Below, in pieces: positions 10,759 to 10,900 of a stretch of 11,556 nucleotides of DNA. Both the position numbers and the translations under genes were made by a program. The notes beneath the pieces are model-generated. The model was given only the letters and a program-made list of their open reading frames with translations, was not told the DNA's origin and did not search any database. The stretch covers positions 1-11,556 of IMG/VR virus record IMGVR_UViG_648276659_000002; one strand, written 5' to 3'. Every line of letters begins with the position of its first letter. The stretch's first letter is position 1. This stretch comes from a virus. Lineage: Duplodnaviria; Heunggongvirae; Uroviricota; Caudoviricetes.

Positions 10759-10833
10759 TGTAGCTGACCGCCGCGCGTACTGCAATCGGCAGCGCACCGA
10801 TGGAAGCCGGTTCGATTCCGGTCGCCACAATCC
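10759..10833 (+). other. Degenerate tRNA-like element (intact T-arm, anticodon-arm-like hairpin, imperfect acceptor)
   Basis: T-arm GCCGG-TTCGATT-CCGGT (10806-10822) contains GGTTCGATTCC. An anticodon-arm-like 5-bp stem with 7-nt loop (10785-10801) sits at the correct distance. The acceptor pairs at only 5 of 7 positions, the D-arm is unrecognisable, the loop lacks U33 and there is no CCA. Confidence 0.25.
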
Positions 10834-10840
10834 AAACTGA

Positions 10841-10900
10841 GCCGTAGCCACTGGCTATCCTGAATTCATCAGTGATAGTTACGCTGCGGCCTTCTTTTTT
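10841..10900 (+). terminator. Long imperfect hairpin plus T-tract (terminator-like) upstream of the holin
   Basis: Outer stem GCCGTAGC (10841-10848) pairs with GCTGCGGC (10883-10890). Inner stem CTATCCTGA (10855-10863) pairs with TCAG-t-GATAG (10869-10878) around loop ATTCA. Followed by CTTCTTTTTT. Confidence 0.35.

Follow-up and report, generated by a model that had tools for sequence, protein, structure and literature searches.

The late-control region of a lambdoid prophage, covered by 11,556 nucleotides (nt) of virus record IMGVR_UViG_648276659_000002 (the window, meaning the whole stretch of DNA that was analysed), contains a transfer RNA (tRNA)-like unit upstream of its holin gene. The unit, at positions 10702-10831 of the + strand, is an intact member of a conserved structured-RNA family, referred to here as family A, and combines a cloverleaf with a 57-nt extra arm. 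An earlier sequence-only reading of this region had suggested either a decayed tRNA gene or a tRNA-like structured RNA. The second suggestion is borne out, as four cloverleaf arms are present and all of them covary, whilst the first is contradicted by strong purifying selection, compensatory changes in every helix and conservation of an extra arm that is foreign to tRNAs. The most likely role of the unit, proposed with modest confidence, is that of a tRNA mimic that would be excised from the leader transcript and act in trans. The unit is not described in the literature searched and is unannotated by Rfam, PGAP and the phage records examined, except for a 58-nt 'tRNA-Ser' in one record.

Architecture and conservation of the family A unit

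The unit is a cloverleaf plus one extra arm, which is located at the position of nucleotide 26 (Table 1). This architecture follows from deletion of the extra arm in silico: when columns 43-100 of alignment A3 (window 10728-10784) are removed, ARAGORN calls a tRNA-Arg (GCG or TCG) in most members, including the window. The sequence-only reading had rightly recognised the near-consensus T arm (GGTTCGATTCC at 10809-10819, within a 5 base pair (bp) arm at 10806-10822) and a correctly spaced anticodon-arm-like hairpin (10785-10801, with 5 bp and a 7-nt loop, 4 nt 5' of the T stem), and had seen that the loop lacks U33, its position being occupied by A. The acceptor and the D arm were misread because a 76-nt tRNA starting near 10759 was assumed. 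The acceptor had been described as partly pairing; the true partner of its 3' strand CGCCACAAT (10823-10831) is GTTGTGGTG at 10702-10710. In place of the supposedly degenerate D arm, a good one (GCTC AATGGC GAGC at 10713-10726) lies 5' of the start that had been noted.

Covariation was assessed in 34 non-redundant members (alignment A3), with the structure drawn by hand. In this set 90.5% of cells are paired, versus 32-46% after a shift of the 3' partners by 1-3 columns, and 20 of the 46 pairs are changed on both sides. The covariation score of 0.298 compares with 0.138 in shuffles and was reached by 0 of 500 shuffles. Compensatory forms occur in the T stem (GCCGG/CCGGT, GCAGG/CCTGT, GTAGG/CCTAC, GATGG/CCATC, GCTGG/CCAGC and GCATG/CATGC), in the acceptor (TGTGGTG/CACCACA, TGAGGTG/CACCTCA and TGTGACG/CGTCACA) and in both helices of the extra arm, namely P3 (GCAG/CTGC, GGG/CCC, GTGT/ACAC and GCGA/TCGC) and P4 (TTTTGCGGT/ACCGCAGGA versus TTCAATGGT/ACCACTGGA). 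The anticodon-like stem was invariant in the first member set only because the search pattern fixed it; in members retrieved with the 5' anchor it also covaries (ATCAG/CTGAT, ATTGG/CCAAT and ATAGG/CCTAT). G-U pairs are frequent on the + strand (for example in 15 and 16 sequences at two P4 pairs) and would be A-C mismatches on the other strand, which assigns the RNA to the + strand. The covariance model derived from A3, window included, scores the window at 149.5 bits and the other loci searched at 126.6-177.7 bits, with one strong copy per locus.

The loops are also constrained. The hexamer in the apical loop of the extra arm is self-complementary in all 77 distinct sequences, although it occurs in seven kinds: ACTAGT, ACCGGT, TCTAGA, TCGCGA, TCTGGA (with G-U), TCCGGA and GCTAGC. 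Because the helices covary and this hexamer is always self-complementary, the unit is a selected structured RNA and not a decayed gene. As a 6-nt palindrome within a loop cannot pair with itself internally, the simplest reading is that it may support kissing-loop homodimers between molecules. The T-loop base at position 59 matches the D-loop pyrimidine (16/17) throughout the 77 distinct sequences, which cover both interior types (T/T in 42, C/C in 35, mixed in 0); this correlation fits a tRNA-type elbow, and shared ancestry of both ends could contribute to it. In the anticodon-like loop, CAGCGCA, the CGCA is near-invariant and C35 and G36 are invariant. Pairing of the loop CGC(A) with the internal-loop GCGCG is a candidate pseudoknot on which covariation is uninformative, since both are invariant.

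Distribution of the unit among phages

BLAST searches found the region in 170 phage records. HK75-like phages have the entire region in common at 97-99% identity, whilst Skate-, seszw- and Akira-like virulent Salmonella phages have only window 10689-10830 in common, at 92-96%. Across unrelated phages, lambdoid and virulent, the 142-nt core is 92-98% identical and, judged by these alignments, the unit alone spreads horizontally between unrelated phages, without its flanks. More distant members occur in Pantoea phage PdC23 (79%) and the P22-like phage BIS08P22 (73%), and the fold is kept at 73-79% identity. The unit is far beyond chance, given the identity of the core in unrelated phages together with the covariation of its helices.

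Two independent sequence anchors each retrieved at least 119 viral contigs, and at least 137 loci in total hold the element. Its carriers are lambdoid prophages, P22-like phages, virulent Salmonella phages and a Pantoea phage. Copies are present in 164-175 of 5,426 complete E. coli genomes (about 3%), and PGAP annotates no RNA feature at the unit in these copies; the copy in E. coli 55989 / strain MS 196-1 is 100% identical. A scan of species-representative genomes gave five hits, four of them in Enterobacteriaceae (Klebsiella, Enterobacter, Superficieibacter and one further isolate). The fifth is a metagenome-assembled genome labelled Cellvibrionaceae (L157, JAUVQU010000080.1), in which the unit lies on a 9.7-kb contig with an HK75-type late leader. 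Across the 280 nt inspected, this leader agrees with the version seen in enterobacterial prophages, and the contig is probably misbinned or contaminating.

The unit resides in four contexts, the counts of which include redundant copies. In 54 loci, the window included, it lies in the pR' late leader, from the tR'-type terminator to the long hairpin, upstream of the holin gene. In about 33 loci it lies between nutL (boxA/boxB) and an N-type antiterminator gene, the start codon of which is 23-27 nt 3' of the unit. A third arrangement (22 loci) consists of an HNH-AP2 open reading frame (ORF), 139 nt of spacing, the upstream helix P0 and the unit, a terminator and a putative holin-like ORF; several further loci are tRNA arrays of virulent phages. 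A leader motif, CACAACAGG, and the 12-bp helix P0 precede the unit in all contexts except the N leaders. The frame of ORFs that read through the unit at other loci is not conserved, and in the window no ORF of at least 50 amino acids covers 10600-10950 on either strand.

Several of these places are tRNA slots. Phage 21 and SfI hold tRNA-Asn(GTT) and tRNA-Thr(TGT) in the late-leader slot, between the same terminator and long hairpin, which agrees with the earlier remark that lambdoid phages often carry tRNA genes here. In the tRNA arrays, the Akira unit is followed by tRNA-Met and that of locus L128 by tRNA-Arg and tRNA-Met, and in L131 a hairpin resembling a tRNA T arm is located just 5' of the unit, inside P0, with no ARAGORN tRNA call there. 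A near-consensus promoter-like sequence (TTGACA, 17 nt, TAGATT) is present upstream of the Akira and Skate units.

Of 137 loci, 28 have an HNH-AP2 ORF in the vicinity of the unit (for example L160 434-920, L006 1993-2590 and L007 2393-2885). In 17 of these 28 loci the ORF stops exactly 139 nt upstream, in the window and L080 it stops 115-124 nt upstream, and in Skate/Akira-type loci it begins 750 nt 3' of the unit. Homing beside a conserved RNA gene might account for the 92-96% identity of the unit in unrelated phages.

The nearby HNH-AP2 ORFs would also suit a DNA-level feature, either a homing-endonuclease target or a recombination 'boundary sequence', with the RNA fold being incidental; the CUS-3 record annotates boundary sequences here, and varied cargos lie between identical stem halves. 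This explanation is very unlikely. The compensatory changes, including G-U pairs that are possible on one strand only, point to selection on RNA, and the palindrome varies in sequence yet stays self-complementary, which a sequence-specific DNA-binding protein would not tolerate. Furthermore, HK75 and many other loci have no nearby HNH gene.

That the locus is a functionless decayed tRNA gene or att-type tRNA fragment is scarcely credible. No tRNA caller recognises the unit, and a GenBank record (Salmonella phage vB_CECAV_048, L003) annotates a 58-nt 'tRNA-Ser' at 1587-1644, over the 3' half. This feature consists of the anticodon-like hairpin, the T arm and the acceptor 3' strand; it is a mis-annotation of the 3' half of the unit, and will propagate. 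A tRNA pseudogene would show relaxed constraint and ignore pairing, whereas compensatory changes maintain every helix across the more than 130 copies from unrelated phages, the 142-nt unit is 92-98% identical between lambdoid and virulent phages and all copies score 126-178 bits. The members at 73-79% identity exclude recent clonal copies as the source of the alignment.

Relation to known RNA classes and to sister RNAs

Standard models do not detect the unit. ARAGORN finds no genes in the window and none at the unit in 33 related loci scanned, where it calls only genuine neighbouring tRNAs, and the Rfam tRNA model (RF00005) gives no match to the unit at gathering scores or at E ≤ 10. No match to any family of Rfam 15 was obtained at the gathering threshold in the window unit or in L003, L004, L007, L009, L128, L160, L161, L285 and L286; the only Rfam similarity of the unit is that of its 15-nt T arm to transfer-messenger RNA (tmRNA), at 5.7 bits. 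The sequence-only reading would have been abandoned had covariance models made no tRNA call and the locus shown no similarity to phage-borne tRNA loci: neither a covariance model nor ARAGORN calls a tRNA, but in position the locus is homologous to the tRNA loci of phages.

With canonical class I tRNAs (RF00005, and the tRNAs in the phage 21 and SfI slot) the unit shares its slot and strand, the stacking of an acceptor-like stem (7-9 bp) on a T stem of 5 bp whose loop reads TTCGAYT, a D arm that has GG in its loop, an anticodon-like hairpin of 5 bp and 7 loop nt, a variable loop of 4-5 nt and the D-loop/T-loop elbow. It differs in its fifth, 57-nt arm and in three positions: A occupies position 33 in 77 of 79 sequences, and C37 and A8 are invariant, where tRNAs have U33, a purine at 37 and U8. 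The CCA register varies, with 8 bp + N + CCA in the window, 9 bp + A + CCA in N leaders and none in Skate-type copies.

These differences bear on whether the unit could be a working decoding tRNA-Arg (anticodon GCG), with the extra arm tolerated or lost as an intron. The tRNA-Arg call after arm deletion, the invariant C35 and G36 and the tRNA slot would suit a decoder, which nevertheless has very little to recommend it: A replaces U33, C37 and A8 are fixed, there is no conserved CCA or discriminator register, the intact sequence is missed by tRNA models, and the extra arm is itself under selection, including its palindromic loop. Bacteria are not known to have a mechanism for removing an insertion at position 26.

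Non-decoding RNAs of tRNA shape are known elsewhere. The mascRNA at the MALAT1 3' end is one. Plant mitochondrial t-elements are tRNA-like and punctuate mRNAs (PMC1920247). RNAs of this type are cut by RNase P on the 5' side and by RNase Z or E on the 3' side, which frees the RNAs that flank them. By analogy, the position of the unit in operon leaders and tRNA arrays, and its shape, would be consistent with this type: in both cases tRNA-shaped non-decoding structures lie within longer transcripts at mRNA boundaries, with excision by tRNA-processing enzymes proposed. T-elements and mascRNA differ in being eukaryotic or organellar and in having no extra arm with a palindromic loop, and processing of the phage unit is only proposed. 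The tRNA-like domain of tmRNA and YrlA likewise do not decode and are built on the acceptor/T-arm stack and D-loop/T-loop elbow of tRNAs, but YrlA is circularly permuted relative to tRNA and linked to rsr, and neither Rfam family is significant on the unit. Comparable in setting are the P1/P7 C4 antisense RNA and, in the T4 tRNA cluster, the stable RNAs 'species 1 and 2', small phage RNAs that are matured by the tRNA machinery and lie among or instead of tRNA genes; these RNase P substrates have no sequence or Rfam similarity to the unit. The phi80 M3 RNA was considered as a member and rejected, being an oop homologue located elsewhere.

A tmRNA-like tag module occurs in Akira (L007 1255-1445), L075, the lambdoid loci L072 and L277, the P1 ban leader (L285 1190-1290) and Det7 (L286 1170-1330). 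It is a start-less 10-codon frame (ANDDVILMAA*, ANDDVVLMAA*, ANDDLMMVAA* in P1 and the diverged ANDNTFLAVA* in Det7), which is comparable to the E. coli ssrA tag ANDENYALAA. In Akira-type loci UAAUAGCCUG comes next, similar to what follows the tag in E. coli ssrA; after it come a hairpin, with GUGUGAUUAAUAA as its loop (P1 has a related one), and CACAACAGG-P0, which is replaced by a covarying variant in Det7. BLAST found the module in 735 phage records (Felixounavirus, Kuttervirus, Klebsiella, Erwinia, P1 and Bp4), and no RNA feature is annotated at it among the records listed.

The unit might accordingly be read as the tRNA-like domain of a modular phage tmRNA-like or ribosome-targeting RNA system, which is an improbable account of it. 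The tag frame lies about 75-110 nt 5' of CACAACAGG-P0 in Akira, L075, L072, L277 and the P1 ban leader, family A or a sister RNA (family B, below) comes after it in the non-P1 loci, and the module gives repeated Rfam tmRNA_permuted matches of 22-29 bits, below the threshold of 47. The module is, however, absent from the window and present in only 5 of 269 scanned regions, so that it is missing from most family A loci. Neither a tag-like frame nor the pseudoknots of tmRNA occur in the window, and the acceptor pair 3:70 is U:A instead of G3:U70; ARAGORN calls no tmRNA there, nor at the tag module in Akira (L007) and L086, the loci scanned. Moreover, the order of tag, P0 and complete tRNA-like domain fits neither a one-piece nor a permuted tmRNA.

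In the N-leader copies the closing stem is extended to 16-20 bp with one bulged A, and it covaries. The outer stem, GCTTTGGGGTGTG... / ...CACACCACCAAAGC, encloses the relatives between nutL and N and is shared by lambda, the 90-nt interior of which is unrelated; in L009, which is otherwise lambda-like, the unit substitutes this interior of the lambda stem GGCTTTGGGGTGTGTG / CACACACCACCAAAGC. In phi80 (L164 6829-6972, minus strand; the lambda counterpart is L155 460-600, minus strand) the same outer stem holds a third unrelated interior. Since lambda, phi80 and the family A carriers have a common stem with three unrelated interiors, the N-leader stem behaves like a cargo slot. The phi80 N leader was rejected as a member, as its weak 16-bit match to the family A model reflects the common outer stem. 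This stem is probably the RNase III processing stem of lambda, reportedly described by Steege 1987 and Kameyama 1991.

Family B, the sister RNA, has the same stem halves (TTGTGGTGAA ... C(G/A)CCACAA) behind the same P0 helix. It is present in L161 (HK629) 697-1020, L162 (JEP4), L163 (E212) and L004 (CUS-3) 1497-1915, and about 60 distinct versions occur in L165-L283. A first hairpin (GCGCA GGCTGA TGCGT) is followed by 60-200 nt of hypervariable interior and by a second hairpin (CCGG AGATCAGCA CCGG), which stacks on the acceptor 3' strand. The hairpin loops GGCUGA and AGAUCAGCA are complementary (GCUGA / UCAGC), which suggests a Watson-Crick 'elbow'. No Rfam match was found in CUS-3 (L004), the single member locus scanned.

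Leader context and proposed role

The whole window is the late-control region of a lambdoid prophage (Pfam: NinG, NinH, phosphatase and Q), and its pR' aligns with the annotated pR' of HK75 and phage 21. The unit had been placed between Q and the holin, which is loosely right; a homing-endonuclease ORF and a copy of the tR' terminator also intervene. The tR' copy is identical to the terminators annotated just 3' of pR' in phage 21 and HK75, and a non-coding stretch of about 200 nt separates it from the long hairpin. This hairpin folds with -27.7 kcal/mol (z = -5.7 versus shuffles) and is near-identical in phage 21, HK75, HK629, JEP4, E212 and CUS-3. The hairpin and T tract reported by the sequence-only reading are real; among the phages compared, only the window and phage 21 have the T tract. 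As the hairpin is present in HK75 and CUS-3 without it, what is conserved is the hairpin itself and not its terminator function.

Table 1. Coordinates of the late-control features in the window and of the parts of the family A unit
Feature	Position	Strand	Remarks
Q	9351-9869	+	Pfam PF06530
Late promoter pR' (TTGACA, 18-nt spacer, CATAAT)	9847-9876	+	11/12 consensus; overlaps Q end
~700-bp insertion between pR' and tR' copy	9877-10576	+	Terminator-like hairpin and HNH_3+AP2 ORF
Terminator-like hairpin inside the insertion	9917-9937		
HNH_3+AP2 homing-endonuclease ORF	10064-10576	+	Pfam PF13392 and PF00847
tR' intrinsic terminator copy	10585-10629	+	Stem 10585-10593 / 10611-10619, then T tract; upstream boundary of cargo slot
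Leader motif CACAACAGG	10631-10639	+	Upstream of P0 in 42 distinct upstream flanks, unrelated phage contexts
Helix P0	10638-10649 / 10690-10701	+	12 bp; 3' strand abuts acceptor 5' strand
P0 hypervariable tip	10650-10689	+	
tRNA-like unit, family A	10702-10831	+	Covariation (34 non-redundant members), covariance model, ARAGORN after arm deletion
Acceptor-like stem	10702-10710 / 10823-10831		GTTGTGGTG / CGCCACAAT; 7-bp core 10704-10710 / 10823-10829
AA linker	10711-10712		After acceptor 5' strand
D arm	10713-10726		GCTC AATGGC GAGC; GG loop
Extra arm	10728-10784	+	57 nt; between D arm and anticodon-like arm
Extra arm P3	10729-10732 / 10780-10783		
Extra arm internal loop			ATA and GCGCGTA
Extra arm P4	10736-10744 / 10763-10772		
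Extra arm apical loop	10745-10762		18 nt; palindrome ACTAGT at 10751-10756
Anticodon-like hairpin	10785-10801	+	ATCGG CAGCGCA CCGAT
GGAA	10802-10805		Between anticodon-like hairpin and T arm
T arm	10806-10822	+	GCCGG TTCGATT CCGGT; 5-bp stem 10806-10810 / 10818-10822
Long imperfect hairpin	10841-10890	+	T tract CTTCTTTTTT 10891-10900; downstream boundary of cargo slot; terminator-like in window phage
Phage 21-type holin S	10951-11166	+	First lysis gene downstream; Pfam PF04971, E = 1.4e-35

The ~700-bp insertion is missing in HK75, CUS-3 and phage 21 and found in HK629 (L161 1-700), which has the same cassette arrangement; the HK629 record puts pR' elsewhere. The cassette sits directly 3' of the pR' -10 box, before the normal tR', and replaces the initially transcribed (pause) region of pR'. 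A 60-amino-acid ORF in the cassette has no Pfam match. From its position, expression of the cassette endonuclease would depend on Q antitermination.

Helix P0 is itself conserved, with 94.6% of cells paired versus 40-50% when the partners are slid and 6 of 12 pairs changed on both sides, whilst its tip is hypervariable and 35-55 nt long across the family. Within the leader motif, CACAAC (10631-10636) repeats the sequence of the acceptor 3' strand and can pair alternatively with GTTGTG (10702-10707). Two competing folds are thus predicted on paper, between which covariation cannot discriminate since both partners are identical in sequence. The extended P0 helix is perfectly continuous in L075, and its outer part covaries in Det7 (ACATCTG/CAGATGT). 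The extended form could be a switch or a leftover of an upstream module.

The foremost rival to a trans-acting RNA is a leader element that acts purely in cis. It would be either a signal for punctuation or processing, setting the leader apart from the lysis or N mRNA, or a switch between extended P0 and acceptor that tunes termination at the long hairpin 3' of the unit or expression of the first gene. The unit always lies in 5' leaders, directly before the first gene of the operon and in many loci 23-27 nt from the N start, and it substitutes the interior of a stem common to the lambda N leader; the two mutually exclusive predicted folds, the terminator-like hairpin directly 3' and the precedent of plant mitochondrial t-elements (PMC1920247) could all be accommodated. 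Even so, this explanation is rather unlikely. Where virulent phages have the unit in tRNA arrays, the protein genes beside it are encoded on the opposite strand, leaving it no gene to regulate; the loop nucleotides and the palindromic loop are conserved far more than a cleavage signal requires; and the unit moves between contexts without its flanks.

The preferred role, that of a tRNA mimic released from the leader, would proceed as follows. Transcription from pR' would reach the unit in the late leader only when Q lets RNA polymerase pass the terminators. The unit would then be cut out by the host nucleases of tRNA excision and leader processing (RNase P, RNase E and RNase III), and the stable L-shaped RNA so released would act in trans as a mimic and not as a decoder, given A33, C37, A8 and the lack of a conserved CCA end. 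The D-loop/T-loop elbow would supply tRNA-like recognition, and the palindromic loop would permit kissing-loop homodimers. Precedents exist for several of these steps: RNase P processes the non-tRNA phage RNAs C4 and M3 (PMC11143913), and RNase III positively regulates lambda N mRNA and activates N synthesis (PMC9032294). Phage Thr(UGU) tRNAs rescue phages from OLD tRNase (bioRxiv 10.64898/2026.07.10.737580). The leading guess for the target would be a tRNA-binding host factor, because phage tRNAs occupy the same slot and Thr(UGU) tRNAs counter tRNA-cleaving nucleases.

Several points weigh against this proposal, all steps of which beyond a conserved structured RNA are inferred. The minimum free energy fold of window 10626-10840 prefers the extended P0 with CACAAC-GUUGUG, and the acceptor stem is not formed; as this fold abolishes the acceptor, recognition by RNase P in the window context is uncertain. 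P0 also abuts the would-be RNase P cleavage site, and CCA is not conserved in register across the family copies. The window copy, in a late leader, has a 9-bp stem only and lacks the long flanking stem (16-20 bp, nutL to N) of relatives such as L009; the equation of that stem with the lambda RNase III site is tentative. Possible dimerisation is suggested solely by the conserved palindromy. Folding energy does not set the unit apart when it is taken by itself (z = -0.4 for the + strand, -0.2 for the - strand); the larger region folds with z = -3.2. Finally, no complement of at least 10 nt was found in the rest of the window for the P0 tip, the apical loop or the anticodon-like loop.

A more far-reaching possibility, which is speculative and on balance unlikely, is that the unit serves the phage as an anti-defence RNA. 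Produced early (from pL) or late (from pR'), this self-dimerising mimic of tRNA would bind and neutralise host tRNA-targeting factors such as abortive-infection tRNA nucleases and, together with family B and the tag module, would form a modular phage RNA set, hitherto unrecognised, that is directed against host translation.

Phage tRNA genes are being reinterpreted as counter-measures to tRNA-cleaving immune nucleases. The same genomic slots also house non-decoding tRNA-shaped RNAs, which are at least as strongly conserved and are horizontally spread. Through family A, the lambda N-leader stem and the tRNA arrays of virulent phages are tied to the late-operon leader and the P1 ban leader as one modular system.

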